A stretch of DNA of 51,572 nt from Clostridia bacterium (GCA_036562685.1 DATCJR010000092.1:1-51572), one strand, 5' to 3'. Counted from the stretch's first letter, positions 32,344 to 51,572 are shown. Numbers and translations are program-made. The notes: a model not told the origin generated them from the letters alone.

Positions 32344-32898
32344 TTATTTTAATCTATTTTCATATACTCTGTAATTCTTTTTGATTTTCTTAATATAGCC
32401 TTGAGTTTCTTTAAATGGAATATATTTTAAGGTTACTCCGTCATCTGAATATTCTGGGTTATTAAGCCAAGAGGACACATTGCCCTCGCCTGCGTTATAT
32501 GCTGCAAGCGCGGTATAAATGTTTTTGAATTTTTTTAGCATACTGTCAAAAAAATGCACGCCTATTTTTATATTGACATCGGGATCATACAACATATTAG
32601 TGGTAAAGCCTTCAATATTTAACTCCTGCGCTACCATAGCCGCAGTGGCAGGCATAAGCTGCATAAGCCCTATTGCGCCTGCGTTGCTAACAGCATCAGG
32701 ATTAAAAGTGCTTTCTGTTCTTATGATAGAAAAAATCATAGCTTCGTCAAGGCTATAATTCTTGCAATGTTTATAAATTATATCCTTATACTTAAGCGGA
32801 TAAGAAATCATGACATAAATATTGGCGGCAATCAGCATAGCCGTAACTGCCGTCAAAAAAATAATTGCATAAATACGTATTGAAATTAACTTTTTCAA
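32344..32898 (-). CDS. Membrane-anchored lytic transglycosylase (SLT/GH23 domain).
   Basis: IIRTESTFNPDAVSNAGAIGLMQLMP and AAYNAGEGNV motifs. TTG start overlaps the coaE TGA. Confidence 0.85.
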   Translation of the reverse strand: MKKLISIRIYAIIFLTAVTAMLIAANIYVMISYPLKYKDIIYKHCKNYSLDEAMIFSIIRTESTFNPDAVSNAGAIGLMQLMPATAAMVAQELNIEGFTTNMLYDPDVNIKIGVHFFDSMLKKFKNIYTALAAYNAGEGNVSSWLNNPEYSDDGVTLKYIPFKETQGYIKKIKKNYRVYENRLK

Positions 32899-36191: not shown

Positions 36192-36238
36192 AAAAAAAGA
36201 AGAAAAAGCCCCTTTGGATGTTCCAAAAGGGCTTTTAT
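36192..36238 (-). terminator. Strong rho-independent terminator closing the phage-like operon.
   Basis: 13-bp stem AAAGCCCCTTTGG / CCAAAAGGGCTTT with a 5-nt loop, followed on the minus strand by a long T-rich run. Lies 10 nt past the holin stop. Confidence 0.8.
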
Positions 36239-36247
36239 TAAAAAACA

Positions 36248-36541
36248 TTATTCTTTATCTACTGTTTTATCAATCAAATACTGATCATCTTGATAATTTT
36301 CAATTTCATCTTCTTTTTGGAGTTCATGCTGATTTTGTTGCTCCTGATTTTGGTTATCTTTGGGTTTGGCGATTATTCCCAAAATCACAAGCACCGCCAA
36401 AACTCCGCTTATTATTTCCTCTATAAAAGGCTGGTCTATCTCTATTCCCAGCCTGTTTAGAATAGTCTTAACTACAAGCAGAATCGCGGCGCTTAGACTC
36501 ATCCAAAAGCCATAGCTACGATACACACTCTTGTTGGACAT
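36248..36541 (-). CDS. Phage holin, phi-LC3/SPP1-like family.
   Basis: MSNKSVYRSYGFWMSLSAAILLVVKTILNRLGIEID...ISGVLAVLVILGII matches the typical layout of this holin family. RBS AGAGGAGA lies before the ATG at 36541 (track start 36565 trimmed). Confidence 0.75.
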   Translation of the reverse strand: MSNKSVYRSYGFWMSLSAAILLVVKTILNRLGIEIDQPFIEEIISGVLAVLVILGIIAKPKDNQNQEQQNQHELQKEDEIENYQDDQYLIDKTVDKE

Positions 36542-36773
36542 GATTATTCTCCTCTTTTTGAACATTGTGCTTTTTCTCTATAGACTGCTTAATCTGAGCT
36601 ACGTCTTCGCGTATTTTTCGCACGATACCTAGATTTTCGCTAAGACCCTTGATAGCAGCCTGATACTTGCTTTCGCGGATTTTGCTTTCTTTTAACTGAT
36701 ACACCAGTAAAACGCAAAACAAAACCGCCCAAAGCCCGTTGGTCGCCGCCATTTTCAAAACTTCTTCCCACAT
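36516..36773 (-). CDS. BhlA/UviB-family holin-like peptide.
   Basis: ATNGLWAVLFCVLLVYQLKESKIRESKYQAAIKGLSENLGIV resembles the UviB/BhlA N-terminal TM plus charged helix. Confidence 0.7.
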   Translation of the reverse strand: MWEEVLKMAATNGLWAVLFCVLLVYQLKESKIRESKYQAAIKGLSENLGIVRKIREDVAQIKQSIEKKHNVQKEENNHVQQECVS

Positions 36774-36777
36774 ATTT

Positions 36778-37767
36778 TTAGCTCCTTGCTTCTATTGCGT
36801 TTAAAAGCTTTCGATAATAATAAGTGTCCAAAGAATTTTTGATTACGTCATTGGTTTCTGCCAACTTTAACGCTTCTTTTTTGGACATGCTGTTTAGATA
36901 ATCTAGAATATATTCAAACTTTTTTTCTTGCTTATGAGTGTTTAGTTCTTTTTCAATTTCGCTTAAGCCCGTAGTTTTGTTTTTCAAAATCTCATATTGT
37001 CCCAAAGTCAAATCCTGCTCTGCTTTTTGGCGGTTGATGTTGTATTCGGCTTCGTACTTGGCAAGCTCGTTATTGTACTTTTGGACTTCTTCTATCTTAT
37101 CGCTGCGCTCTTTTTTGAGTTCGTCTATCTCTATCGCAAGTTTTGCCGCATAAGTGATATCAAGGTCATTGAGCGCCGACTGCTTTTTGGTCTCAAGCTC
37201 AGCGATCTTATAATCTATTTCAGCCGCCTGTTCTATATATGAATTTCGGACTTGGGCTATTTGTTGGGCTTGTTCTTGGTCAAACGCCGCCGCCTGCGAC
37301 AACGCGATAGACGATCTTGCCAACCCCCTTTTTAGAGCCTCGGCTGCGGCAGAAGATTTTGCCTGACTGTAAGTATCTTGAATCACGCTTTCTTTTTGCG
37401 CCAAAGCATCATATAGCTGCTTTTTGTAATCGCTTAAATCATTTTTCTGATTTTGCGTTTCTTCCATGATCGCCTTTGTGCTTTTGTTGTAATATTCCGC
37501 CAAAGAGTTTTTTGCCAAGTTCTCTATCTCGCCATCAGTCAACGGCTGATATTCCAGCTTTTGCACGCCGCTGCTTTTAGGCAAAACCACATTTTCAAAT
37601 TGCTTGTCCACAGAATACTGCTCGTCAATATTTTTGAGCCCTTCTTCAAGACTGGAAGATGTAGATTTGATTGTGTTTACAGGGTTTATTTCAACCGTCT
37701 TGTTGTTTTTCTCCAGATTTGCTTTTATGTTCAGATCCTTTAGAAGTTTGGAATAATCTATTGCCAT
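36778..37767 (-). CDS. Coiled-coil phage-like structural or ejection protein, family unknown.
   Basis: 329 aa, rich in E/K/Q/A heptad-like sequence. RBS AAAGGAG. Confidence 0.6.
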   Translation of the reverse strand: MAIDYSKLLKDLNIKANLEKNNKTVEINPVNTIKSTSSSLEEGLKNIDEQYSVDKQFENVVLPKSSGVQKLEYQPLTDGEIENLAKNSLAEYYNKSTKAIMEETQNQKNDLSDYKKQLYDALAQKESVIQDTYSQAKSSAAAEALKRGLARSSIALSQAAAFDQEQAQQIAQVRNSYIEQAAEIDYKIAELETKKQSALNDLDITYAAKLAIEIDELKKERSDKIEEVQKYNNELAKYEAEYNINRQKAEQDLTLGQYEILKNKTTGLSEIEKELNTHKQEKKFEYILDYLNSMSKKEALKLAETNDVIKNSLDTYYYRKLLNAIEARS

Positions 37768-37858
37768 TATATACTCCTTTGTAATAGTTAATTATTTTGT
37801 CGTGCCGCACCATGCGGAATATCTCTTTGGGCGGTATAAACTTATATTCGTCTTTCAT
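37691..37858 (-). CDS. Possible small ORF (55 aa) missed by the track.
   Basis: Its ATG forms an ATGA overlap with the stop of the 81-aa ORF. Translation: MKDEYKFIPPKEIFRMVRHDKIINYYKG.... It overlaps the next gene by 77 nt, so its real extent is doubtful. Confidence 0.3.
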   Translation of the reverse strand: MKDEYKFIPPKEIFRMVRHDKIINYYKGVYNGNRLFQTSKGSEHKSKSGEKQQDG

Positions 37859-38100
37859 TGCTTCATCCTCAAACGTCCTTTTATGCTCTCTATGGTAAAC
37901 GCGTTGTTTTTAGCTAGCATGTCGCCCATAGAAATCAGCGTGCCTTCAAAGTTTTCCGGAGCGGATTTTCCCAAAACATATTTGCGTTCTTTTATGGTGT
38001 TATCCGCCTTAGAGTAAACCAAAATATATCCGCCGTCCTTGATATACACTCCGCTTATGTTCCTGCCCTTGCCTATCGCTATGGATTTTTGAAAAAACAT
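37855..38100 (-). CDS. Hypothetical phage-like protein (81 aa).
   Basis: RBS AGGAG overlaps the stop of the upstream 626-aa gene. Confidence 0.55.
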   Translation of the reverse strand: MFFQKSIAIGKGRNISGVYIKDGGYILVYSKADNTIKERKYVLGKSAPENFEGTLISMGDMLAKNNAFTIESIKGRLRMKQ

Positions 38101-38109
38101 CTATATCTC

Positions 38110-39990
38110 CTAAAAGCTAAAAGTCAATAAAACAGAAAAGCTGTTGTAGCCCGTTTGGCTGCCTTGCAATATGTTGCAAAATCTTATACTCGCGTCCGTC
38201 TGATATGCGCTCTGATCTGATAATATTTCTATGTCAGTATAGATAACAGGCGCTATCTCTAAGACATTGCCTTGTCTAAAGACAATAATGTCATTCATGA
38301 CAAAAGCCTGCTCTAGCAAAAAAGGCGCATTGCCTTGCGTTATCAAGCTGATTTCACACAAGTCATAATCTATTTCATATAGATAAAAAACATTGGCAGA
38401 ATCCGTTATAATAATGTACCGCGTATCCAAAAACACCTTGTCAATATTGCTCACATATTTGTTAAGGTCAAAAATATCCAATTTTTCTGACACATAAGAA
38501 TACACCGCGACTTTTTTGTCCTTGTCCGAAAAAGCCACGATAGCCTCTCCGATATAATACATACGGTCGGGCGAAATTGATTTTAAGGTCAATATTATCT
38601 GACTGTACAACGGATTGGCGTCTGCGTTCAAAAGCGCCTTATGAACTGTTCCGTTTAAATCATCTTTTTTATAGTTAGTTGCAAAAAGTGTATTTCGTCT
38701 GTACGATGTACCCAAAAACTGTGTATTTTCGGCTTCTATTGTGCAGTTATCCGTCAATATCGGACTTTGGTCCATATAACCAAAAGTCTGTCCTTTTAAA
38801 ATACCATGGCTAAAATAATACAAAACCATATTTTTGCCGCCTGCGTATTCCAAAGACATCAGTTCTATATCGCACTCTAGGTCATTTTGAAAAGTCTTTT
38901 CAACAATCCCACCATTAGAAACATCAAAAAAATACAGCCTTTTTTTATCATGCCCTAGCAGTGTGTCTGATTGGTTGCACACAACCGCAATCTTGCCTGC
39001 GCACATATCCAATAATGAAACTCTTGCAGGCAAAGTTATTTTTCCGATAAATTTAAGAGTGCCTAAAAAGTCTTTAAAAACTTCTATTTCGTTGTTTTTT
39101 ACGCTCAGCAAAAATTGACGGTCTTTTGAAACAAAAATTTTTGACAAGTCCAAATGCAAACATCTTGTATGCGTCTTAGCGGAAACTGCTTTTATTTTGG
39201 CGTGCATGCTAAAGTGTGCCATAACATCATTAATTTTTAATGATGTTATTTCTTTTTTTATAAAATTTACAATCTCTATTCTTGCCTTATCATCAAATGT
39301 GCAAGTCAAAACAGCGTCTTGGATTTTACTGTATGTCGCGCTAGAAATTATTACAGGCTCGCCTTTATAAAAGATGATTATATTTTTTGCGTCCTGTTGG
39401 TGGGGACAAATCAGCCTAAAGGTATTATGATTAGGAAAAATACAAGGGTAACGCTTTGTAATATTTTGCAGGTCTTCAATACTATGATAATCGCAATATC
39501 CGTAAGTAAATGCATCATAATCCAATGCTTCTATCCCCAAAAACACTTTTATAAGCGGATTATCGCCTTGAACAAACACTTCTGAAAACGGAAAATAAAA
39601 ATACGCCGTTATTTCCATAGGCTCGCTGCCCTTATATACTTTTTGGGGCAACATGCTGTGGGTTATTAAGTTACCGTTTAAATCGGCGCAAAAACCAAGT
39701 TCGGTTATTCCCTGACCCACAAATTCATTTTCATCCAAAACTATCTTTCTAAGAACATAATAATCGCCCTTCGTCCAGTCGGCGTTGTATTCTATTATCT
39801 TAGCGGGTTTGACAGAAATGGGCGAAAACAGACTGTAATTAATCACGCTGGGCGTTCCTGTTCCGCTGCCAAACGCAATATAATCGGTAACCTTATACCC
39901 CTGATTGATTTTTTCTCTGAAGTTAGAAAGCATTATGTTATGCGAAATGTAAGTTTTGCCCTGATGTTTAATGATATATGTATTTTTCAT
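38110..39990 (-). CDS. Candidate tail fibre or receptor-binding protein (626 aa).
   Basis: The N-terminal YIAFGSGTGTPS...GITELGFCADLNGNLITHS resembles the tail-collar fibre N-terminal pattern (GdG..tp...L..E....E.Gl.d.dG.Li). The remainder looks beta-rich and is unassigned. Confidence 0.5.
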   Translation of the reverse strand: MKNTYIIKHQGKTYISHNIMLSNFREKINQGYKVTDYIAFGSGTGTPSVINYSLFSPISVKPAKIIEYNADWTKGDYYVLRKIVLDENEFVGQGITELGFCADLNGNLITHSMLPQKVYKGSEPMEITAYFYFPFSEVFVQGDNPLIKVFLGIEALDYDAFTYGYCDYHSIEDLQNITKRYPCIFPNHNTFRLICPHQQDAKNIIIFYKGEPVIISSATYSKIQDAVLTCTFDDKARIEIVNFIKKEITSLKINDVMAHFSMHAKIKAVSAKTHTRCLHLDLSKIFVSKDRQFLLSVKNNEIEVFKDFLGTLKFIGKITLPARVSLLDMCAGKIAVVCNQSDTLLGHDKKRLYFFDVSNGGIVEKTFQNDLECDIELMSLEYAGGKNMVLYYFSHGILKGQTFGYMDQSPILTDNCTIEAENTQFLGTSYRRNTLFATNYKKDDLNGTVHKALLNADANPLYSQIILTLKSISPDRMYYIGEAIVAFSDKDKKVAVYSYVSEKLDIFDLNKYVSNIDKVFLDTRYIIITDSANVFYLYEIDYDLCEISLITQGNAPFLLEQAFVMNDIIVFRQGNVLEIAPVIYTDIEILSDQSAYQTDASIRFCNILQGSQTGYNSFSVLLTFSF

Positions 39991-40003
39991 TGTGTTACCT
40001 TTT

Positions 40004-40990
40004 TTACCCCAAATTATATGGCGTGGTGGATAAATTCACACTTGAAATCTTTTCTTTGGTCATAATTGAATTGGCGGTTTTGAGATAAATTTTTTGGTCT
40101 ATGGTTTTGAACAAAAACATAGGATACGGCGCGTCAAACACCGCTCTAACAGTTTCATAAACGCCTGACTGCAAAATAATCTCTGTCTTGCCTGACACCT
40201 GATTGGTGGGATACACTATGCGGTAAAACGGTTTTGAGTCTTGAATATAAACTATAAGATAGCCTATGGCTATCGGCGCAACCGCCGCACAATCTACATC
40301 ATTGTCAATGTCTAAGGTATGGCTTCCAAGCACTTCAAACTTAAGTTCTTTTTGCTGCCCTATGTACGTTAATGCCGTTTTATAGTCATCATCAAAACCT
40401 TGGCACAACGAAAAATCCTGTCCCTCGCCCAAAACCAAAGGCTCCTTAAAAAAATCAAATTCACAGGTGTCGCTAACATAACAGCAGATTTTATCTTCAA
40501 TTTTTAGTCCAACAATGTTTTTTGACTCGCGGTTAATAAGCTGGATATTGACATCACTTTCAAATCCGCGCACATTGCCGCCCGAGATTATAAAGTCATA
40601 AGAAATAAGTCTTCCGCTGAAATCCTGCCCATCGATTACAATCCCCAAGCTGTTACTAAGCTGTCCTTGAGTGCAAAAAAAGAAAAAATACTCTCTTTCG
40701 CCTAGGTTTAGTTCAATCCTGTCAACATAGCATATAAAACCGTTCAGCTTGCAGGCAAAATCTATGGTTGATTGTTGTTCTGCTATGAGCCGTAGTTTGC
40801 CTATTATTGTAACCAGAGTGTTTTTAGCAGAAGAAAACTTTATCTCAAAGGTGTAATTATCTTGTATTTTTTCATTAAGAGTTTTATTTACCTGCCAATT
40901 AGACATTATTATATTGGTTTTGTTTTCTATGCTTTTTAGCCGTTTGTTTAGGTCTTCTATATTTAGATATGCCAGTTTTCCAAAGTCCAT
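40004..40990 (-). CDS. Hypothetical phage-like structural protein (328 aa).
   Basis: Short N-terminal coiled coil (LNIEDLNKRLKSIENK) followed by beta-rich sequence. Position is within the structural operon. Confidence 0.55.
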   Translation of the reverse strand: MDFGKLAYLNIEDLNKRLKSIENKTNIIMSNWQVNKTLNEKIQDNYTFEIKFSSAKNTLVTIIGKLRLIAEQQSTIDFACKLNGFICYVDRIELNLGEREYFFFFCTQGQLSNSLGIVIDGQDFSGRLISYDFIISGGNVRGFESDVNIQLINRESKNIVGLKIEDKICCYVSDTCEFDFFKEPLVLGEGQDFSLCQGFDDDYKTALTYIGQQKELKFEVLGSHTLDIDNDVDCAAVAPIAIGYLIVYIQDSKPFYRIVYPTNQVSGKTEIILQSGVYETVRAVFDAPYPMFLFKTIDQKIYLKTANSIMTKEKISSVNLSTTPYNLG

Positions 40991-41001
40991 TTTTTAACCC
41001 C

Positions 41002-42480
41002 CTATTTTGTGATATTGAGTTCAAGCATAGGACGGGTTATGTAGCTATTGGAGCTTAAAACCAAAAACGAAATACTTATAAGTCTGAATTTTAGCCTGAA
41101 CGGTATTCTGGTTACCGCCCTGCTGCCCTGGACTTTGAGCTTATATACTTTTCCGTCTGCATTAATAACAATTTCGCAAGGCGTATGACTCACAAGGCAT
41201 ATGGCTTTGAGTGTTTTTATATAATCTCCGCGCCCCAGATCGGTATATGGCGACTGCCAGACCTTCAAAAATTCCTGACCATAATATTGACCGCATGCAG
41301 ACAAAACGCTCAAAATACCTGAATGTTCACTGTGCGAACAAAAAGTCAAAAGCTCTTTTGAACCGATTTTTAAAACCAAAAAACTACCGACATCTATGCC
41401 CCTGTAAACTATGTATGTTTTTTTGGCTGTGTCGTATTCAATAACCGCATTGCACACATGATCTGAGTTTTCGCACAAAACCTTTTGACCGTCCGAAAAA
41501 TCAAATCGGCAGGCAAGATAATATTTTCCGTTATAAAAGACTGCGTGGGCGTTGTCTATATCTTTTATCGCTCTGGTGATTTCGTCCATTATTCGGTATG
41601 TCTGCAATCCGTCAAAAGCATACAGTCCGCTTGAAGTCAAAAATATCACATGGTCGCCGCACAAGGTAACGGTGTTTTTGCATATTCTGCCGCTGGAAGT
41701 GAACAGGTGCGAAACAAAAAACTGCGTCTGGTCTGCATACGCGCTTATTCTTGTTATGCCAAACTCTCTAAAAACATAGACATAGTCCAAAAAACTCATA
41801 ACCTTTAAAAGCGCGCCTCTCTCGTCGTTCATTTCTATAAAGCCTGCGCTTTCAAGGTTTATATCCCAGTTAATCGGATCAAGCTCTTTTGAAAACCAGA
41901 TCTGATTGCTCTCGCCTGTCGATGTGGCAAACAGCCTTTCATAATGAACGGTCATAGACGCAATCTTGGGAGCTTGTTCTACCCTGTATGGCTCGTCAAC
42001 TCCATTAAAGACCAGCATTTCGTCTGTGGGCGAAGTGACAATCAAAACATCTTCGCTGTTAAGGCGGTAATTGAGAAAATTGGGCGTGCTGGAAAAGTAT
42101 GAGTTAGGAATTTTGGTAAATTCGCAAGACGCCCCAAAAATATCGTTATAGTAAAGAAATCCGTCTGACATATAAAGTATCAGCTTGTCATCTCGTCTAA
42201 GCAGCGAAAAGTCATAGCGGTAATACTGCCATGCGGCTTTTATCTGTCCTTGGGGGTAAACTAATTCTTTTGTTTTTTCCAGATGTTCTGACGACAACGC
42301 CTGTATGCCAAGCCCGTCCTTTAACGCACCGTCCGAAATGTCAAAGTTATATGTATTAAAGGCGTACTTTATAGGCATTATGTTGGAATCAATATCACGC
42401 ACCATTCCGCCGCTGAAATTTGCAAACTCTACTATTGTGTTGCGCACTTTGGGCGTTTTTAGATTTTGATGATAAAACAT
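41002..42480 (-). CDS. Hypothetical large phage-like structural protein (about 492 aa); possible tail hub, nozzle or stabilisation protein.
   Basis: Start MFYHQNLKTPK at 42480 (RBS GGAG, 1 nt after the upstream stop) rather than the track's 42597. Beta-propeller-like repetitive composition. Sits after the adaptor-like gene, as in P22/T7-like layouts. Confidence 0.55.
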   Translation of the reverse strand: MFYHQNLKTPKVRNTIVEFANFSGGMVRDIDSNIMPIKYAFNTYNFDISDGALKDGLGIQALSSEHLEKTKELVYPQGQIKAAWQYYRYDFSLLRRDDKLILYMSDGFLYYNDIFGASCEFTKIPNSYFSSTPNFLNYRLNSEDVLIVTSPTDEMLVFNGVDEPYRVEQAPKIASMTVHYERLFATSTGESNQIWFSKELDPINWDINLESAGFIEMNDERGALLKVMSFLDYVYVFREFGITRISAYADQTQFFVSHLFTSSGRICKNTVTLCGDHVIFLTSSGLYAFDGLQTYRIMDEITRAIKDIDNAHAVFYNGKYYLACRFDFSDGQKVLCENSDHVCNAVIEYDTAKKTYIVYRGIDVGSFLVLKIGSKELLTFCSHSEHSGILSVLSACGQYYGQEFLKVWQSPYTDLGRGDYIKTLKAICLVSHTPCEIVINADGKVYKLKVQGSRAVTRIPFRLKFRLISISFLVLSSNSYITRPMLELNITK

Positions 42481-42481
42481 A

Positions 42482-43048
42482 TTATCTCCATAACCTTTTG
42501 GGAATTTTGAGTACGGTGTTTTGGCTGGCGATATTTTGCAGGGTTTGTTTGTATCTAGAATCAAAGCTCTGCGCTTCTTCATACATGGACATAACAAGAC
42601 AATATTCTCTTGCCGCGCCGTATGCTATCAATCTGGAAGTTACTTTTGGGTCGTTTTCTATCACTTGATCCAGCTCTTCTACTTGGGCAGGAATATAGCA
42701 ATATTCAATTTCGCAATTACCCTCGCAATCTGTATAAATATAAGACGGATACACCTTAAAAAAGCAGTCCTTGCCCTTGTCGTCTTTTATTGACTTAATT
42801 TTCAAAGCAGTTTTGTTTAAGGCCGTATATGGAATTTTACCGTCGGCTACCAAAACATCTTGGACATAATTAAGAGGTATATAATCGCTTGCTATTTCAT
42901 TTAAGGTTAGATTTATGCATTTTTTTATTAAGTCCAAATCCTTTTGCGCCTGCTCGTCCTCGGCATCTCCGCCTATTTCAGGCAATGCTAATACCGCGTC
43001 TAATTTCAGCATAGTCGCAGTGTCTATAATAATATCTTTTAGTACCAT
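42482..43048 (-). CDS. Head-tail adaptor/connector-like protein.
   Basis: Start MVLKDIIIDTATML at 43048. Has an acidic N-terminal helix region, and its position after the capsid gene is typical of gp6/gp4-type adaptors. Only weak sequence resemblance. Confidence 0.45.
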   Translation of the reverse strand: MVLKDIIIDTATMLKLDAVLALPEIGGDAEDEQAQKDLDLIKKCINLTLNEIASDYIPLNYVQDVLVADGKIPYTALNKTALKIKSIKDDKGKDCFFKVYPSYIYTDCEGNCEIEYCYIPAQVEELDQVIENDPKVTSRLIAYGAAREYCLVMSMYEEAQSFDSRYKQTLQNIASQNTVLKIPKRLWR

Positions 43049-43061
43049 AAAAAAACCGCCT

Positions 43062-43298
43062 TTATATATTAATGATTTTGGGATCAAAGCGTGAAGTCAT
43101 CGTTTTTCGGACATAGGTTATAGTGCGTGCGTCAAGCTCTTTATAGGGAACATTTAGACAAAAAGTACTGCCTATGTTGTTGCTGTTATGCACCTCGTAG
43201 CTTTTTGAGATTGTGTCAAACATAACAAAATATCCGCTGTCAATGCTCTTAAGCCTGCTGGCTATGTCATATAAATCATCTTTTATGATAATCTTCAT
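43062..43298 (-). CDS. Hypothetical phage-like protein (78 aa).
   Basis: ORF in operon context; no family recognised. Confidence 0.5.
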   Translation of the reverse strand: MKIIIKDDLYDIASRLKSIDSGYFVMFDTISKSYEVHNSNNIGSTFCLNVPYKELDARTITYVRKTMTSRFDPKIINI

Positions 43299-43325
43299 TG
43301 TCTTTTACCCTTTGGCTCTCTATTT

Positions 43326-43365
43326 AAAAGCTAAGCCCCTTATTTTTCTTAAGAGGCTTAGCTTA
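43326..43365 (-). terminator. Intra-operon hairpin just downstream of the major capsid gene (partial terminator or attenuator).
   Basis: AAGCTAAGCCCCTT / AAGAGGCTTAGCTT stem with one mismatch; TTTT follows on the minus strand. Confidence 0.5.
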
Positions 43366-43372
43366 TCTTTCA

Positions 43373-44527
43373 TTAACTTTCTGTTATTCCTGTCAGCTTG
43401 GCTTGTCCTGCGGGTCTGTCGCATACAAATTCCGCATATTTTACCAATGTTGCGGCGTATGTAGGTTTGCCTTGGTTTTGTCTCAAAATTCTGCCCTGCT
43501 CATTTTCAAGCCACTTCCAATCGCATAACTGATGAAGCTTAAAATCAGTACTGTTAAGCAGATACATTTCGCCGCTTTTTATAAACCTGTCAGAAATAAG
43601 CGGTATTCCGTTAAAGGTCAAAGCCTTATATCCGCCGGCAAGGTCCATGACGTCAATATTGCGCTTAAAAGACAGCATATAGTCCTGATAATTGCGTTTT
43701 ACGCCCGCAGAACAAACAATAAAATCCACCTTAGATCCGTTGACTTCTTCCAAACGGTCTATCGCCTGCTGCATAATGATTTCGGTGATGTCGCCGTTGA
43801 CTTCTTTTATATAAGGTTTCATCCAGCGGTGCGCTGTTCTGTCAACACCATATAATGTCTTGCTGTCTGAAAAGATTGCGCCAAGTCCTGTGATTTCATT
43901 GTTATATGAACCCTGGACATACAGCTTAGCCTGCGCCGAAACCGCCAATGTTTTATCCGCAAAATATATGGTTTTTGTGTCGCGGTCAATGGCGGTAATT
44001 CTTTTAGAAGACGCTACCTTTTCTTCACCCGAATAGATGTCAACGGCAAGCCCTTCTATCAGGTTTCGCACACAATCCACTGCGCAAGTGCCCGTTCCTG
44101 CGTCCGTAACGGTCGCTACAAGCCCGCTTCCGTCGCCATAGAGCATTCGCCCTAAGTTGAAAGCGCTGGCTTTTAACAAGCCTTCCATTTCCGCATTAAG
44201 AAGATTTACAAACGCTCCTACGCTGCTAGAAGAAGCTCGTATTGCCTTGTCTGAAATCTCAATTTGACCGTAAAGATTTTTTAGCGTGCTTACAAATTGA
44301 ACATATTGATTGCCATACGCAGAGGGCAAATCTCCATCTTCTGTGCCTGCGCCTATGCCGCCGTTAATGCCAAAAGGCGCAAGTTTTCGCACTTCTTTTC
44401 CCCATACGTCTTCTGTCGATTGCTTTATCTTAGCCAAAAACGGATTTATTTCGGTGTTTAATTGATTGCTTACCACATCAAGATAAACTGTTTTTAATAC
44501 GCTTTCGGCATTGGTTAATGTTACCAT
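43373..44527 (-). CDS. Phage major capsid protein (HK97-fold-like).
   Basis: 384 aa, immediately after the scaffold gene (TAGATG junction, RBS AAAGGAGAG). The motif NLLNAEMEGLLKASAFNLGRMLYGDGSG is typical of phage major capsid spine-helix regions. Confidence 0.8.
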   Translation of the reverse strand: MVTLTNAESVLKTVYLDVVSNQLNTEINPFLAKIKQSTEDVWGKEVRKLAPFGINGGIGAGTEDGDLPSAYGNQYVQFVSTLKNLYGQIEISDKAIRASSSSVGAFVNLLNAEMEGLLKASAFNLGRMLYGDGSGLVATVTDAGTGTCAVDCVRNLIEGLAVDIYSGEEKVASSKRITAIDRDTKTIYFADKTLAVSAQAKLYVQGSYNNEITGLGAIFSDSKTLYGVDRTAHRWMKPYIKEVNGDITEIIMQQAIDRLEEVNGSKVDFIVCSAGVKRNYQDYMLSFKRNIDVMDLAGGYKALTFNGIPLISDRFIKSGEMYLLNSTDFKLHQLCDWKWLENEQGRILRQNQGKPTYAATLVKYAEFVCDRPAGQAKLTGITES

Positions 44528-45193
44528 CTAAAACTCTCCTTTTTTTGATAAAAGTTCTTTTGCCAGACTTTGCGCGTCTTTTAGATTTTTGGGACGAATC
44601 GGGGGCAAAACGCTTATCACCGTACTCTGTCCGCAAATCGTTCTTGGAACATTGACGCTTACAAGTTTGGACAAATAATCATTGATAAAATGCTGTCTTA
44701 TTTCTTCGTTTTGATAAACAAAATCATTTAGGAACTTCTCGTCTTTCAAAATATCCGCCGGATGCTGAACCTTGGAGATAAGCACCGCATTAAAAGCTGC
44801 GAGCAAATCGTTAAACTCAGGCTTCATAGTATTAAGCGCCTGTCCGATTTCAAGCGCATATTCTTTTGCCTGCGGATACTGTTCAAAAAACCTGTCAATC
44901 ACAAGCTCTGTTTGGTCGTTTGCTTGCTCTTCTTGTTTTACAGGCTCGCTGCCGTTATCCTGTCCGGGCGACAACGGGTTGTCTGCAACTTGGTCATTTT
45001 GAACTATTTGATCTTGGTTTTGGGTTTCAAGTGTCTTTTGCTGAAAATCTTGTTTTTCGTTTTCTAATTGCTTTTTTAAGGCGGCGTATTCCTGACATTT
45101 TTTTGTATAAGCCGAATGCAGGTTGTTGTACGCCTTCAAAAGCTCTTCTGTTGACTTGAACTTAGAAAGAGTAATATCATTCATTGATTTCAC
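44528..45193 (-). CDS. Phage scaffolding protein.
   Basis: N-terminal KFKSTEELLKAYNNLHSAYTKKCQEYAALKKQLE, a Q/E-rich coiled coil, and position between portal and capsid. Confidence 0.75.
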   Translation of the reverse strand: MKSMNDITLSKFKSTEELLKAYNNLHSAYTKKCQEYAALKKQLENEKQDFQQKTLETQNQDQIVQNDQVADNPLSPGQDNGSEPVKQEEQANDQTELVIDRFFEQYPQAKEYALEIGQALNTMKPEFNDLLAAFNAVLISKVQHPADILKDEKFLNDFVYQNEEIRQHFINDYLSKLVSVNVPRTICGQSTVISVLPPIRPKNLKDAQSLAKELLSKKGEF

Positions 45194-47036
45194 CCTTGTT
45201 AGATAAACTCATAATCGCTTTGTGATGTCTTATGTGTTTTAAAAACCGTTCTTTTATGCTATCTTTTTTAGAAAAACCGTCTGAAAGCATATATTTGATA
45301 TGCTCTTCGATATGCAGTTCATGATTGTCTATTTCGCTTGCATCCTGGTCTTGCTCCAATAACGCAAGGTTTTCTCTTTGCGCCTGCTTGATATGTAACC
45401 CGTCTATATCGCGCGCGTTTTCGTAAATTCCAAGCCCCAGCATCTCCAAAATCTTATGCCGCATGCGATTGCTTATTTTGCCATTTTCGTCCGCTAGTAT
45501 CCCCGTTTTTAGCAAATCAAAAACAAAACTTCGCTTATTGGCTGGAGTCTGATTAAGTTCGTTTTCAGAAGCAAACACCACATCATCGCTATTGAGATCG
45601 CTTTTTTTCCAATAATATGTCTCCAAGTCGCCGTTTTCGCCTACGATTTTTAGCACGCGCGCTTCGTTCGAATATTCCCTGTAAATGCGCAAAATCATTT
45701 TAGCGATAGACTTGATCGCATCACGGATAAACTCCGCGCTCATAGAAAGCCTTGTGTCGTCCTGTTCGATAAGCAGCTGCAAGCCTACGCCAGACGAAAC
45801 ACTGTTAGGCACCTGGCTGTTACGCATGATCTCGGACACGCCGCTTATGCTGATAAACTCTGACATTATGCGGTCTTCTTCTGCGTTTAGTTCGCTGGGC
45901 AGTCTGCCCGTATCCATAAAAACAGGCGGATTGGCACCTTGTCTATACACCACGATTTTGCCGGGCGGCAAACCGTCTTCTGTAAGCTCGTCTATATCAA
46001 CCGCACCGTCTTCTACCGCCAGCACGCCCGCCGCTAATCGGTTCAAAAACTCAGCTTTTCTGTTTTTTACTGCATTATAGCTTCGCTGAACAGGTATAGC
46101 TCGTTCGATTATGCTGATCCCAAAAAAACTTCCTGCAGTCTTGGTGCAGGTTTGTTTTACAAAAGGGAACGCAGGCGTATTCTCCGCGCCTACATTATAA
46201 GGTAGTTCTCCGATATGCAACAGCTTGTCTTGAGTGATTATAATCAGCCTGCCTTTAGGGAATTGCTTGGTCGGCTTTTGATAAAACTCTATTACTATCG
46301 AATGTTTTTTTGGCGTTTGAGTAATATTTTTTTCTGACTGATACAGACCAAACACATTGACATCTTCGCCCGAAACGGTTATACCCCATGTGTCCTTGAT
46401 ATAATCAACCTCGCATGCTCTTGCGTGAATAAGACTCTGGCAATCCTCGACTTCGCACGAATTGAGATAATCGGGATATATTTCAAATGGCGGCACAACC
46501 GTTATAGATATGTCGCCCTGATAAACAGGCGTTCCGTCTTCAAGTTTTCCAGCAATTTTGCCTGCGTTTTTATCCCAGCCGATTTTATAAAAAACAGTTC
46601 CGCACGTTTCGCTCCATACCGTGGCCTGTGAAATCAATCGGCTCAAATCGTTTTTATGATAAATAGAATTAAGCAGCATGGACGACACCTTGGCGGTATA
46701 AATATCCGAATCAGAATCAGTAGCAGGCACAACGCTCATAACAGGACGCACCCTGTTGAGCTTGGCAAGTCGTGTTTCAAGTATAGGCGCGAGGTGGTTA
46801 TACACCTGCCTTTCCTGCCAAAAAAACTGCTTGTCGCAATCCTGTATTTCACCGTTTGAGGCTATGTCGCAGTATTGATTTCCCAGCACAAAATTCATAT
46901 TAAGCTGCCATTGAAGCTCATATTTTCTTCTTTGGTTGCGTCTGTTTTGATAATCGCTTCTTATTTCCTGGATTAGTTCTTCTACGCTTTTTCCGCCAAA
47001 CAGATAAAGACTGCTTTTGGGTATTTCTTTTTTCAT
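45177..47036 (-). CDS. Phage portal protein.
   Basis: 619 aa, located between the packaging and scaffold genes. The N-terminal YELQWQLNMNFVLGNQY...NHLAPILETRLAKL is portal-like. Confidence 0.8.
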   Translation of the reverse strand: MKKEIPKSSLYLFGGKSVEELIQEIRSDYQNRRNQRRKYELQWQLNMNFVLGNQYCDIASNGEIQDCDKQFFWQERQVYNHLAPILETRLAKLNRVRPVMSVVPATDSDSDIYTAKVSSMLLNSIYHKNDLSRLISQATVWSETCGTVFYKIGWDKNAGKIAGKLEDGTPVYQGDISITVVPPFEIYPDYLNSCEVEDCQSLIHARACEVDYIKDTWGITVSGEDVNVFGLYQSEKNITQTPKKHSIVIEFYQKPTKQFPKGRLIIITQDKLLHIGELPYNVGAENTPAFPFVKQTCTKTAGSFFGISIIERAIPVQRSYNAVKNRKAEFLNRLAAGVLAVEDGAVDIDELTEDGLPPGKIVVYRQGANPPVFMDTGRLPSELNAEEDRIMSEFISISGVSEIMRNSQVPNSVSSGVGLQLLIEQDDTRLSMSAEFIRDAIKSIAKMILRIYREYSNEARVLKIVGENGDLETYYWKKSDLNSDDVVFASENELNQTPANKRSFVFDLLKTGILADENGKISNRMRHKILEMLGLGIYENARDIDGLHIKQAQRENLALLEQDQDASEIDNHELHIEEHIKYMLSDGFSKKDSIKERFLKHIRHHKAIMSLSNKGEINE

Positions 47037-47248
47037 ATTTTTTCTACCTTGTTTTCTTGGCTCTTTTTTGTTTTGCTATGCGCTTTTAAAACCTTTGCAC
47101 CTTCTTTGGTTAAAGTATCCAGGCAAGCGCTGCATATATGAATTTCATTTCTTATCCCCAGCCTTTTTGCCCTTATCGCAAACTCCGCTTTGTTGGGGCA
47201 AACTCCCATCTCGCAGCGGGACACGTATTTCAGCTTGACTATTTCCAC
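47033..47248 (-). CDS. Small Cys4 zinc-ribbon-like protein (71 aa).
   Basis: GTG start with strong RBS GGAGGAG. Motifs CEMGVC...CSAC. ATGA overlap with the portal start. Confidence 0.55.
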   Translation of the reverse strand: MEIVKLKYVSRCEMGVCPNKAEFAIRAKRLGIRNEIHICSACLDTLTKEGAKVLKAHSKTKKSQENKVEKI

Positions 47249-47504
47249 TATTTAGCTCCTCCATAATTTCGTGCTTGAGTTTGTTGATTTCGTTCTCCAA
47301 CTCTTGGTCTGACATCTCATTAATATTCTGTTCCATATCAATAAGCAGTTTTGCTGCCGCAAGGTCGGGCGGAATATGCTTTTTGGTTACTTTTTTCTTG
47401 GTTAGTTTTAGCCCTTCCTCGTCCATGACATATTCTTCAACAACTTCATTGACATTGTAGCCTTGCGCTTTTTTTGCTATCACCTTCAAAAAATCATCTT
47501 TCAC
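47145..47504 (-). CDS. Small acidic/basic protein, possible small terminase-like or DNA-packaging accessory protein (119 aa).
   Basis: GTG start forms a GTGA overlap with the terL stop. LTKKKVTKKHIPPDLAAAKLLID resembles a motif seen in Firmicute-phage TerS proteins. Its 3' 104 nt overlap the zinc-ribbon ORF in another frame. Confidence 0.45.
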   Translation of the reverse strand: MKDDFLKVIAKKAQGYNVNEVVEEYVMDEEGLKLTKKKVTKKHIPPDLAAAKLLIDMEQNINEMSDQELENEINKLKHEIMEELNSGNSQAEIRVPLRDGSLPQQSGVCDKGKKAGDKK

Positions 47505-48964
47505 ATTCTGTACCCCTGCCTTAACCTTTTGATAAGCCTTTCTTTATCTTTGGTGATTATGCTCTTGTTTGTTTTTATTTCAGGCGGTTCGGGGCGGCTC
47601 ATTATGTAATACCTGAGTTCGTCCATAGCATGGTCTAATTCCTTTTTGGGCATATCGCCCGCATCCCAGCGGTAAGACAAAAACTCCTTGATCATGTTGA
47701 CGCAATGCGAAAAAACATATAACTTGGGCTTGCCGTTTTCGCCTTTTAGATAATATTTGACACGCGAAATCCCCGAAAACACATCTTTGTTGACCTTGTG
47801 ATTGACATGGATGCCCTCGTCATAAAAAAGCTCGCTTACGCTTTTCGTGCCTGCCAATGTCTTTGCCGCCGCCGCACTGTCTATCAGTGCGGATATATGC
47901 CCCGATTTATCTTTAATCCATCCAAGATCCGCGCATATTTTTTTGATTCGGTCGGCATGATACTTTACATCCTTTCCTGCCTGATAATGCTCGGCTATCA
48001 CATATACATTGCCGTCATAGTCCACAGCGTACCAATGCGCCGAAAGCGGATTGTTTAGACCTGGGTCTATCGAAATATTGTCATACCATTCAACAGGCAC
48101 GCTGAACGGTTCTATCACATGCACACTGGTGTCAAACTCTTTATATACAAGTCCGCCTAACCCTGAAAACTTGCCGTACCGTCTTGAATCCAGTTCTTCG
48201 CTGTCTAACAGTCTAGTCATACGCTCTATTTCTGCTTTATCTAAGTACGGATTGTCCGCCCATTCCATGTGAATATGCCACAAATCTGGATCGTTCTTTT
48301 GGTTTTTGAATATCAGTTCATACACCCAGTTAAGCCCTTTTAAGGGAGTCATGGTTACCCAGATATAGCCTTTTTTGTCCAGCAGCCTCATGCGGCATTC
48401 ATCGTATATGTCTTTTGGCGGCTCTTCGTCTATCCATACAAAATCAAGACTAGTGCCTTGAAATTTTTCTCTGCCCTGATCGCAGCTTTTAAACCCAAGT
48501 CTAGATATTCCGCCGAAAACATTTTTGACCAAGATATAATCAATCACGCCCTCAGAATAATTGTCTTTAGAACCTGACGACATAACCACATCTGCAATGC
48601 ACCGCTTAGGCAAATATTCCAAAATCTTTCTTTGTGCGACATCGCGAGATACCTGACTAGACAGCGAAACCGCCCAGCCGCTTACATTGGGGCGGTTGGG
48701 TTTATATGGGTGATTGCCTAACAGCGTCCACACTGTTTCCACCGCCCCGCATTCTGTTTTTCCGCTTCGATTTCCTCCAAAGACAAAGCGCGTGCGTGCG
48801 CAAGCGTTATGAAACATAAGCTGTTTTTTGTGAACTTTTTCGCCTGTGTTGTATTTTGACAATTTATCTGAAACGCTTCTTAAATCCAGTTCTTTTTTTA
48901 ATTTGAGATATTTTTGAATTTTTTGGTTTATATCCATAATCAAACTTAACATTATTCGACACAA
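47501..48964 (-). CDS. terL: Phage terminase large subunit.
   Basis: Walker A GGNRSGKTECG, Walker B LDFVWIDEEP, and a C-terminal nuclease-like half. The start may be ATG at 48937 (MDINQK) rather than TTG at 48964. Confidence 0.9.
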   Translation of the reverse strand: MCRIMLSLIMDINQKIQKYLKLKKELDLRSVSDKLSKYNTGEKVHKKQLMFHNACARTRFVFGGNRSGKTECGAVETVWTLLGNHPYKPNRPNVSGWAVSLSSQVSRDVAQRKILEYLPKRCIADVVMSSGSKDNYSEGVIDYILVKNVFGGISRLGFKSCDQGREKFQGTSLDFVWIDEEPPKDIYDECRMRLLDKKGYIWVTMTPLKGLNWVYELIFKNQKNDPDLWHIHMEWADNPYLDKAEIERMTRLLDSEELDSRRYGKFSGLGGLVYKEFDTSVHVIEPFSVPVEWYDNISIDPGLNNPLSAHWYAVDYDGNVYVIAEHYQAGKDVKYHADRIKKICADLGWIKDKSGHISALIDSAAAAKTLAGTKSVSELFYDEGIHVNHKVNKDVFSGISRVKYYLKGENGKPKLYVFSHCVNMIKEFLSYRWDAGDMPKKELDHAMDELRYYIMSRPEPPEIKTNKSIITKDKERLIKRLRQGYRM

Positions 48965-49017
48965 AGTCAGAAAATCATAGTATAAAAGTTAACTTGCGGG
49001 GCGTATAATTTTAGTTG

Positions 49018-49755
49018 ATGAAGAGGTTGTTTTGCTTTTTTATTTTTTTGCTTTTGTCGATTGTATCTGTATTCGGCGGTTTTTGGACATACCCAAAAAA
49101 AACTCATGCGCAAAACGGAAATTTAGGCTATGGACTGATCGTGGAGTCAAAGTCTGTACTCTACCGCAATCCTGTCAATTCGGATACTTTGGACAACATC
49201 TATTTTTATTTGCCTGAAACTTATTTTGTAGAAGTGTTGGAAAAAATTGATGATGTTTTTTATAAGGTTAGGTATGTTGATGTAGTCGGTTATGTCAAAT
49301 TTTCAGCTATTAATATAAAAAACTATGTGCCCGTCTCGGTTTTTCCTACCAATCTGTCCCTAAAAATCAACGGTGATATTACGGTCAATGTCCGTTCACT
49401 GCCTGACACAAGCTCTGCCCTTATAACAACCTTGCCTTCAGGCACAAGCGTTGAATATTACAACAAAACATCCGGACAAGAACTAAACAGCGGTTCGGCA
49501 TATTGGTATTATGTCAAAATCAACACCGGCACGCAGACCTTGTACGGATATGTGTATTCGGACTATATAACGCTAAACAGCGAAATAATATATCCAAACG
49601 ATATCTCTCCCATGCCCGTAAGCAACGAAAAAGATCCAGACGAGATACTCAATGACAAATACACCTTCTGGACTCAAATAATAATTGCTCTAGCTGTTTG
49701 CATCCCGATAGTGTTTATAATCTATCTTATTTTCAAGCCTAGAAAAACAGCCTAA
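49018..49755 (+). CDS. Signal-peptide protein with two bacterial SH3 (SH3b) domains and a C-terminal TM anchor.
   Basis: MKRLFCFFIFLLLSIVSVFG.... Two SH3b-like repeats (...VNVRSLPDTSSALITTLPSGTSVEYY...YWYYVKI...GYVYSDYI). C-terminal IIIALAVCIPIVFIIYLIF. Confidence 0.75.
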   Translation: MKRLFCFFIFLLLSIVSVFGGFWTYPKKTHAQNGNLGYGLIVESKSVLYRNPVNSDTLDNIYFYLPETYFVEVLEKIDDVFYKVRYVDVVGYVKFSAINIKNYVPVSVFPTNLSLKINGDITVNVRSLPDTSSALITTLPSGTSVEYYNKTSGQELNSGSAYWYYVKINTGTQTLYGYVYSDYITLNSEIIYPNDISPMPVSNEKDPDEILNDKYTFWTQIIIALAVCIPIVFIIYLIFKPRKTA

Positions 49756-49780: not shown

Positions 49781-49810
49781 AAGCAGCCAAAACTTAAGGC
49801 TGCTTATTTT
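49781..49810. terminator. Bidirectional terminator between the convergent SH3b and sigma-like genes.
   Basis: AAGCAGCC / GGCTGCTT stem with a 9-nt loop and T-runs on both strands. Confidence 0.6.
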
Positions 49811-50343
49811 TCGTACATTATCCCCTGTCTTTGCATATAAACTGCTTTTGGTATAATTTTTATGTCAGGCTTTTCTTTCTTTTGTGTGTTTTTAGTTTTT
49901 TGAACGCACAATTTCATAAGCCATTTTTGATTTCCATAAGTTTTCAAAAACCAATCATCATCAAATCCGTTTTTTATAAAATACTCATTACAAACCTCAG
50001 GCAGATCTTCTAATAGTCTAAAAATACTTCGGATGCTTAGCCCAAGCATCTTAGCGATATCATGCACTTTTTTTCTTTCTATGTATCTTTTTCTTGCTAC
50101 CTGACGATATTTATACGGCAGACTGTTAATCATATCCATAACCAAAACCTTGAGATTGATAAGGTCGATTTTGTAATTGGTCAAATCAGTAATCGCCTTT
50201 ATATCGCCAAAAATTTCATGCGGTTGTCCGTCTATTCCTGATGATTTTATGGCGATGTCCATTACCTTTCTATCCGATATGTCCGCCAAAATCTGAAGTT
50301 GTTCATAACCTTGAAGCATAGCATTGATAAATTCGTAATTCAT
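49804..50343 (-). CDS. Sigma-70 region-4-like HTH protein; candidate phage late-gene activator (ArpU/RinA-like).
   Basis: LPYKYRQVARKRYIERKKVHDIAKMLGLSIRSIFRLLEDL resembles a sigma region 4 HTH. Strong RBS GGAGGTGAT. Confidence 0.6.
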   Translation of the reverse strand: MNYEFINAMLQGYEQLQILADISDRKVMDIAIKSSGIDGQPHEIFGDIKAITDLTNYKIDLINLKVLVMDMINSLPYKYRQVARKRYIERKKVHDIAKMLGLSIRSIFRLLEDLPEVCNEYFIKNGFDDDWFLKTYGNQKWLMKLCVQKTKNTQKKEKPDIKIIPKAVYMQRQGIMYEK

Positions 50344-51335: not shown

Positions 51336-51572
51336 TCAGTTCAGGAAGAATGGATCGCAATAAAAGACGTGATTTTAACACAGGCGAACGGATATTATGT
51401 TTCTAAAGACGGACAGGTCAAGTCCGCAACAAAAACGACACATTATTATACATATTCCATTACAGAAAATGGCAAGACTAGAACGGGCGTCGAAATAAGC
51501 TCTATTTCGTATGAATATTTTGATGGAATATATTTGGCAAAAAAAGATAAAGACGGTAACAAAACCAAAAGA
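51336..51572 (+). pseudogene. 79 stop-free codons in the same frame as the preceding lipoprotein ORF, open to the window end. Probably the continuation of an interrupted gene.
   Basis: Translation: SVQEEWIAIKDVILTQANGYYVSKDGQVKSATKTTHYYTYSITENGKTRTGVEISSISYEYFDGIYLAKKDKDGNKTKR. There is no in-frame ATG with an RBS near its beginning. Confidence 0.4.

Follow-up and report, generated by a model that had tools for sequence, protein, structure and literature searches.

The 51,572-nucleotide stretch of a Clostridia bacterium genome analysed here (GCA_036562685.1, DATCJR010000092.1:1-51572; hereafter the window) carries at positions 36248–48964 a run of 15 phage-type genes, all on the minus strand and with every open reading frame (ORF) intact. 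The locus, which is 12.7–14 kb long, has genes for the components of a podovirus-like particle: a packaging motor, a portal, a scaffold, a capsid, a nozzle and two holins. A preliminary description of the window had called these ORFs and named the large terminase, portal, capsid and holin families among them, and our profile searches confirm both the ORFs and the families. Related loci, designated by L numbers below, were compared by tblastn over 91 loci and by ORF-family clustering over 38 loci with full flanks.

The operon opens with the gene for the large terminase subunit, TerL (47501..48964), which matches phrog_2 (7e-38) as well as PF03237, PF04466 and PF17289; gene callers start it at 48952, giving a protein of 483 aa. 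The following ORF of 119 aa (47145..47504), which the preliminary description left unnamed, belongs to a family in which 18 of 25 members match phrog_309 'terminase small subunit' (best 8.6e-9). Alignment of the window protein is confined to profile positions 204–287 of 319, in the last third of the profile, which indicates a small terminase (TerS)-like protein without the usual N-terminal part. We therefore describe it as TerS-like, apparently truncated and lacking a recognizable N-terminal DNA-binding part. The next ORF encodes a 71-aa protein with a Zn-ribbon pattern (CxxxxC...CxxC; 47033..47248) and has a strong Shine-Dalgarno sequence, GGAGGA, 7 nt ahead of its GTG start. It is kept in L014 (66%), L021 and L080, and its family, ORF family 14, is found in 12 loci. 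Over 47145–47248 this ORF runs, in a different frame, across the final ~35 codons of the TerS-like gene, an overlap that is also present in L014, and the overlapped tail of the TerS-like protein is not conserved within its family. Translational coupling or a frameshift product is a possible explanation of the overlap.

The portal (45177..47036) is of the P22/SU10 type, with matches to PF16510 (2.7e-18), PF23899 (1.6e-9) and phrog_156 (1e-38). The protein encoded between portal and capsid (44528..45193) is assigned as the scaffolding protein on its position and composition; it is kept in 35 of the 38 loci, and a family scan returned no match for it, Prp included. The major capsid protein (43373..44527) is of podovirus type: NF033394 capsid_maj_Podo (6e-79, 265 bits) is the sole capsid family that it matches in NCBIfam, and it also matches phrog_14242 (8.6e-64). 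Behind it lies a conserved small protein of 78 aa (43062..43298; ORF family 8), without a family match, that is present in 26 of the 38 loci at tblastn identities of 34–69% and might serve in head completion or decoration.

Between capsid and nozzle, the window encodes a protein given as 188 or 201 aa long (188 aa at 42482..43048), which is conserved at this place in 31 of the 38 loci. Its family has no adaptor match in PHROG and no match in a PDB sequence search, and we retain the earlier 'adaptor-like' label as that of a putative head-to-tail adaptor, by position only. The neighbouring protein of 492 aa (41002..42480) is considerably clearer. Structure models were predicted from alignments built from the homologues recovered by protein search, and the AlphaFold2 model of this protein has a pLDDT of 90. 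In Foldseek it matches the Pa223 tail (9nwi_Y; E 3e-24, TM 0.76) among PDB entries, with further matches to VP1, GP4, P22 gp10 (8eap_D), SU10 and T7 gp12. PDB sequence-profile searches with the nozzle family, with the 188-aa family and with the family of the coiled-coil protein described below gave nothing useful. From its predicted fold the 492-aa protein is a podovirus tail nozzle (tail tube), a fold that implies a short tail, and the earlier statement that no tail tube could be recognized no longer holds. The portal type, the podovirus HK97-fold capsid and the predicted beta-propeller nozzle are together those of a P22/SU10-like virion module.

The distal tail genes are less conserved, and the distal module exists in several versions among related loci. 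A 328-aa protein (40004..40990), possibly a fibre or spike component, is only 34–57% identical in relatives whose capsids are 85–89% identical, and its N-terminus bears a weak resemblance to ORF family 30, found in other loci. The 626-aa protein beside it (38110..39990) is 41–55% identical in close relatives, with a ratio of nonsynonymous to synonymous substitution rates (dN/dS) of ~0.10; its N-terminal ~170 aa are shared with ORF family 15 (~670 aa) elsewhere, while the remainder differs. Neither has a family match in profile scans. Fibre or receptor-binding proteins would be expected to show such low identity beside a conserved capsid, and the divergence and the conserved N-terminus make the 626-aa protein the candidate receptor-binding protein. 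A small protein of 81 aa (37855..38100), without a family match and 71% identical in L012, separates these genes from a 329-aa coiled-coil protein (36778..37767) that matches Pfam DUF7934 (PF25588, 2.7e-51) and is present in 26 of the 38 loci. The AlphaFold2 model of the DUF7934 protein is a long helical hairpin (pLDDT 84), which returned generic coiled-coil matches only from the PDB and weak matches to podovirus internal virion proteins from BFVD (E 1e-3 to 0.1). As a guess, it is a candidate internal virion (ejection) or plug protein.

Two holin genes close the operon. One encodes a BhlA-family holin (36516..36773; PF10960, 8e-19; phrog_2429) and the other a Phage_holin_1-like protein (36248..36565; phrog_297, 2.9e-8), for which PF04531 is a borderline match (22.5 bits, with the cut-off at 22) and to which gene callers give 97 aa. 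A search for an endolysin among 52 ORFs, drawn from distal modules and flanks in related loci, found host genes and holins only. The sole wall-hydrolase-like gene in the window encodes a 184-aa protein with an SLT lytic-transglycosylase domain (32344–32898), directly after coaE and 3.3 kb from the cluster, and shows no link to it. The cluster ends at an intrinsic terminator (36194..36236, minus strand) that consists of a 15-bp stem (36204–36236) with 6 GC pairs and a 3-nt loop, followed by a T-run; it lies ~94 nt from the polA start (36100), much as had been described.

At its other end, the element does not stop at TerL. The preliminary description had set the cluster limits at 36248 and 48964 and had correctly noted a divergent SH3b gene close by. 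This gene (49015..49755, plus strand) begins 50 nt from the longest TerL ORF, or 65 nt if the gene-caller starts are used, and encodes a 246-aa protein (PF08239 SH3_3, 7e-14) that appears secreted and membrane-anchored, having an N-terminal signal-like segment and a C-terminal transmembrane segment. We considered this protein as the endolysin and rejected it, as a catalytic domain is found in 0 of 32 family members. Next to it, on the minus strand at 49804..50343, is the gene for a 179-aa sigma-70 region-4-like regulator (PF08281 Sigma70_r4_2, 2.6e-6). Its family profile matches region 4 of SigF, SigL and FliA in the PDB (2e-5 to 5e-4), and NCBIfam returned partial region-4 matches and a weak ArpU match only. 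A regulator homologue occupies the same upstream position in 30 of the 38 related loci, and an SH3b homologue the same divergent position in 31. Both genes lie beyond 48964 and travel with the cluster, so the element extends further right than first drawn. On its domain match, the sigma-region-4-like protein is a candidate activator of the cluster.

A promoter search upstream of TerL found subgroup-specific motifs only, such as AAAATGCGNTTTTTGTC in five loci, and none in the window. In the SH3b–TerL intergenic region of L016, L017, L018, L049 and L065, AAAATGCG(N)TTTTTGTC stands 40–60 nt upstream of TerL, and a different motif, AAAATGTCGTAAAAAA, occupies the same intergenic region in a subgroup composed of L048, L057, L061 and L067; neither occurs in the window. 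The sigma-like regulator may act on these subgroup motifs, which are candidates for its operator or promoter elements.

Housekeeping genes occupy the remainder of the window (hrcA-grpE-dnaK-dnaJ, prmA, pta-ackA, rpmF, a Zn ABC transporter and polA-coaE). Over 36 kb on the left of the cluster and ~7.5 kb on its right, no integrase, repressor or replication gene was found, which upholds that part of the preliminary description; its companion statement that the window has no endolysin-like gene has to be amended for the SLT-domain gene. As had also been noted, no tRNA or obvious direct repeat flanks the cluster: a tRNA scan and an Rfam scan of the window were both empty, and the search for attachment-site (att)-like direct repeats returned short A/T-rich chance matches only. 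The earlier proposal to look for an integrase past the window end could be followed on a 118-kb contig of the same species, which carries an AraC regulator, an aldose epimerase and a Big_3 surface protein there, and no integrase. Three independent assemblies of the species (L001 and L002 in addition to the window) break within ~100 nt of the right end of the window (~51450–51572), while a fourth, L003, reads past the break into two small ORFs, the aldose epimerase and the AraC regulator. The break point is probably a strain-variable or repeated spot. In L012, the closest relative, the gap between holin and polA, ~150 nt in the window, holds a 122-aa DUF559-like ORF (L012:9511-9879), Vsr-type endonuclease-like as judged by sequence, and ~1.4 kb of extra DNA.

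Relatives of the cluster are widespread. Capsid homologues number more than 6600, mostly 60–65% identical and many on bacterial contigs of up to 558 kb, and a scan of one genome per species, which gives a lower bound, found cluster relatives in at least 543 species-representative genomes. Almost all carriers are metagenome-assembled genomes (MAGs) of uncultured Clostridia, Christensenellaceae, Borkfalkia, Catabacter or Fimimonas. Across the loci compared, both the 91 searched by tblastn and the 38 clustered, the order TerL, portal, scaffold, capsid, 188-aa protein and nozzle is nearly universal. The host flanks are shared as well: upstream there is a polysaccharide deacetylase in 10 of the 38 loci and a single-stranded DNA-binding protein (SSB) in 11, and downstream come a multi-pass membrane protein, RNase J (18 of 38) and an O-methyltransferase. 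RNase J stands downstream even in a relative whose capsid is only 48% identical. The polA-adjacent site, for which the preliminary description had suggested a comparison with related genomes, is confined to the sub-lineage of the window (L012; in L040 polA is reversed), and polA adjacency therefore has no general significance, whereas the purifying selection raised in the same suggestion is borne out below. No integrase, excisionase, primase/replicase or repressor family was found in the flanks of the 38 clustered relatives, and 0 of 148 loci were circular or terminal-repeat contigs that would hint at an independent small phage. Matches in IMG/VR are the same chromosomal element on short contigs, and the best capsid match in a cultured phage has only 25–30% identity.

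Several further features of the related loci were observed. Two families of multi-pass membrane proteins, of ~326 aa (26 of 38 relatives, for example L016:17501-18511, a representative without a Pfam match) and ~279 aa (8 of 38, for example L022:17039-17857), precede RNase J and close the element there; the window lacks homologues of both. An SSB gene with no rpsF or rpsR beside it lies, together with the deacetylase, 3–4 kb upstream of the regulator in at least 11 species (for example L022:50-1198). This second SSB of RNase J-type loci may belong to the host or may have remained from the ancestral phage. In L136:3376-7263 (IMG/VR 3300029711_000209; capsid 48%) only a C-terminal TerL fragment is left, adjoining two tandem large serine recombinases and an Mtd_N (major tropism determinant) protein, with RNase J still downstream, an arrangement that points to integration of a different element in the TerL gene. 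L054 carries two genes on the opposite strand, an AAA_14/DUF4143 ATPase gene between TerL and the TerS-like gene (L054:3199-4497) and a Fic/DOC gene between portal and scaffold (L054:7495-8433), apparently accessory or toxin-type genes that the operon acquired by insertion.

The divergence of the element follows that of its hosts. Mean pairwise protein distances are 0.33 for the capsid, 0.38 for TerL and 0.51 for the portal, compared to 0.46 for RNase J, and the distances of element and RNase J are correlated (Mantel r 0.57, p 0.0015, 14 loci). Against the three closest relatives, synonymous divergence (dS) is saturated and dN/dS is 0.04–0.25 in every measurable gene. The capsid is better conserved than host housekeeping proteins, both than RNase J by pairwise distance and than PolA by nonsynonymous divergence (dN 0.077 against 0.132). 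Codon usage of the cluster correlates with that of the host (r 0.94), with a GC content of 40.2% compared to 36.9%. The locus is thus maintained by selection. It shows two of the features that characterize gene transfer agents (GTAs) and other viriforms: the phage-derived structural cluster is chromosomal and has no replication, integration or lysogeny genes of its own, and its genes are inherited vertically with the host under purifying selection. Because it is kept intact in the chromosomes of hundreds of species, the locus is most likely a GTA-like particle factory rather than a dead prophage. In our judgement it is probably a selected, domesticated locus for particle production, derived from a podovirus and inherited vertically, which was one of three options in the preliminary description and is now strongly supported by its spread over at least 543 species, its shared flanks, its purifying selection and the lack of mobility genes.

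The other two options in that description were a decayed prophage and a satellite, and both fare poorly. A functionless remnant that persists by chance or by hitch-hiking would fit the lack of lysogeny, replication and endolysin genes, as well as the insertions inside the cluster of a few relatives. Such a remnant is scarcely credible given that 15 of 15 ORFs are intact although dS is saturated, that dN/dS remains at 0.04–0.25, that the capsid has changed less than RNase J and PolA, and that the core is found in at least 543 species; the earlier remark that the intact ORFs speak against simple decay was sound. The compactness of a cluster that encodes its own capsid, together with the appearance of fragments of it in IMG/VR as viral contigs, could instead point to a helper-dependent satellite, such as a capsid-forming phage-inducible chromosomal island (PICI), or to the structural half of an active temperate phage. 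We regard this as very unlikely, as integrase, excisionase, primase/replicase and repressor are missing from the flanks in the window and in the 38 relatives, host flanks are conserved across species, a tail nozzle and distal tail proteins are encoded within the cluster, none of the 148 loci has terminal repeats, and the IMG/VR contigs are pieces of the chromosomal element. A capsid-forming PICI would bring an integrase plus a regulatory and replication module, would have capsid and packaging genes but no tail genes, and would depend on a helper, and the missing integrase and replication genes, the fixed position and the tail nozzle do not fit one; an ordinary temperate prophage would show an integrase or recombinase, a repressor, a replication module and att repeats, none of which was found at the locus. 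Taken together, the intact ORFs, the saturated dS, the shared flanks, the remoteness of cultured phages and the absence of terminal repeats lead us to set aside both a decaying remnant and a mobile prophage or satellite.

Two other proposals accept that the locus is selected and differ on what it does. The main alternative to a GTA-like function is a PBSX-like killer or adhesion particle, in which short-tailed particles that contain DNA would damage competitors and deliver no usable DNA. The conservation and selection data are the same for both, fast-evolving distal proteins are expected of strain-specific targeting, and the authors who described a comparable element in Faecalibacterium, FpGTA, keep this option for it themselves (PMC12946183). 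However, known tailocins kill by means of contractile or long tails, whereas here there is a podovirus nozzle, and a complete packaging machine (TerL, TerS-like protein and portal) under strong purifying selection would be needless for a pure killer. We give the killer particle a low, though appreciable, probability. A further proposal is a different cellular role: anti-phage defence, decoy capsids, or a stress- or lysis-linked system for DNA release or public goods without a targeted recipient. The conserved host-like regulator and the membrane SH3b partner that accompany the cluster, and the toxin- and ATPase-type accessory genes inserted in the cluster of one relative, would suit such a role, but it is highly improbable as no defence-type domain occurs among the cluster genes in the window and the full adsorption apparatus is kept. 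That apparatus, with distal proteins that diversify, points to interaction with other cells.

The GTA-like interpretation allows us to propose how the system may work. A P22/SU10-like short-tailed phage would have left a remnant that was fixed in the chromosome of uncultured, mostly Christensenellales-like Clostridia and kept as a GTA-like 'viriform'. The sigma-region-4-like protein may turn the operon on in some cells, after which, by homology, a procapsid would form from scaffold, capsid protein and portal. TerL and the TerS-like protein would then fill the procapsid by headful packaging with little sequence preference; since the TerS-like protein appears to lack the DNA-binding part and thus a preference for a site, mostly host DNA would be packaged. 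A short tail, composed of the putative adaptor, the nozzle assigned by fold, the DUF7934 protein and the 328- and 626-aa proteins, may recognize related cells. Finally, the two holins would free the particles with the help of a wall hydrolase from elsewhere. It is possible that the particles actually transfer DNA between cells in the manner of a true GTA, a step to which we give slightly less than even chances; otherwise they may, like PBSX, do no more than kill or bind cells.

Several points weigh against this interpretation. The locus is known from its genes alone, and we infer everything beyond an encoded podovirus-like particle. The TerS match of the window protein itself is weak (E 0.013), and the assignment leans on the wider family. 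The cluster has no endolysin, and none recurs in the clusters of relatives, so that release needs a gene encoded elsewhere. The chromosomal site is not universal, being next to polA in the lineage of the window and next to RNase J in many others, which implies at least one relocation or rearrangement. That its particles carry essentially random host DNA in pieces too short for the whole locus of 12.7–14 kb, as those of a GTA would, has indirect evidence only, from the TerS-like protein apparently without a DNA-binding part and from the packaging of 4–7 kb published for Christensenellaceae. Lastly, the link to the packaging of host DNA in Christensenellaceae (discussed below) is taxonomic only, although the locus is the obvious candidate.

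[quoted passage not shown] Its operon I of ~10 kb encodes a TerS that lacks a DNA-binding domain, TerL, a portal, a Prp-like protein, a capsid (RCH50849.1, named as N4-gp56 family), an adaptor, a nozzle with a match to PDB 8eap and a coiled-coil protein found in abundance in the particles, while a second operon 125 kb away holds a fibre, a receptor-binding protein, a holin and an endolysin (PMC12946183). The particles are ~40 nm in size and package 8.4–8.9 kb of host DNA (PMC12946183). The likeness of the two systems is considerable. Both are chromosomal operons without replication or lysogeny genes in Gram-positive anaerobic Clostridia and are nearly ubiquitous within their host clades; both have a TerS or TerS-like protein without an obvious DNA-binding domain and a P22 gp10-like nozzle with PDB 8eap among its matches; and both run in the same order from the portal through one gene, the capsid, a small ORF, the adaptor, the nozzle and further ORFs to a coiled-coil protein. 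There are also clear differences. The capsid in the window belongs to NF033394 and has no N4-gp56 match, the TerS-like gene and the Zn-ribbon ORF lie downstream of TerL whereas the TerS gene of FpGTA lies upstream, and an ordinary scaffold takes the place of the Prp-like protein between portal and capsid. Furthermore, the operon in the window itself carries distal tail proteins and two holins, with no endolysin seen, and the element has a conserved sigma-like regulator and an SH3b gene. The names of distant capsid relatives are uninformative on any link to FpGTA. Since the two differ in capsid family, in where the TerS gene lies and in what stands between portal and capsid, we do not file the locus in the FpGTA family; compared by described families and gene order, it looks like a system that works as FpGTA does and stems from a separate, or very anciently diverged, domestication.

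Comparison with other systems places the locus further. Like RcGTA (Rhodogtaviriformidae), it is a structural cluster that is inherited vertically under purifying selection and co-diverges with its host, lacks integration and replication genes, has a TerS-like protein apparently without DNA-binding specificity and would depend on auxiliary genes elsewhere in the genome. The RcGTA activator GafA has a sigma-region-4-like domain, a likeness to the regulator in the window. RcGTA, however, derives from a siphovirus (tail tube, tape measure), is found in Gram-negative Alphaproteobacteria and has proteins unrelated in sequence, and its packaging of ~4 kb and its transfer are proven, whereas the evidence at our locus consists of genes. 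PBSX of Bacillus is likewise a domesticated phage-like element of a Gram-positive host and, as we propose for the locus, packages host DNA and is released by holin-dependent lysis, but it has a contractile myovirus-type tail, ~28 kb of DNA, a repressor of its own (Xre), endolysins and a killer function; the window cluster shares neither these genes nor this type of tail. Podophages of the P22, SU10 and Pa223 type share the portal families PF16510 and PF23899, the podovirus capsid family and the nozzle fold with the locus, which differs from them in having no replication, lysogeny or early module and in holding a fixed chromosomal site.

In the Christensenellaceae MAGs HGM11616 (sp900761075, GCA_900761075) and QANA01 (sp019420265, GCA_019420265), GTA-like packaging of fragments of ~4.1, 6.3 and 7.1 kb has been reported, with no locus named (PMC12946183). 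We tentatively propose, at rather less than even confidence, that the locus described here is the source of this 4–7 kb packaging and represents an ancient, order-wide GTA of Gram-positive anaerobes that was domesticated independently of FpGTA and has its own sigma-like activator. If this is true, it would be the most widely distributed GTA family known outside Alphaproteobacteria. GTAs have long been known almost only from Alphaproteobacteria. A podovirus-like GTA was first reported in Faecalibacterium, in a 2024 preprint published in 2026 (PMC12946183). The locus would add a second, separately built short-tailed particle system that is fixed across hundreds of Christensenellales-like species, and its carriers include gut lineages in which packaging of host DNA has been seen but not explained. 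It appears to be a new variant within this recently recognized group of systems, one that has not been described as a gene cluster before, and it gives Pfam DUF7934 a structural context. The genes now defined, with a candidate regulator and candidates for receptor binding among them, open a health-associated and mostly uncultured clade to direct tests of whether such particles move genes or kill.

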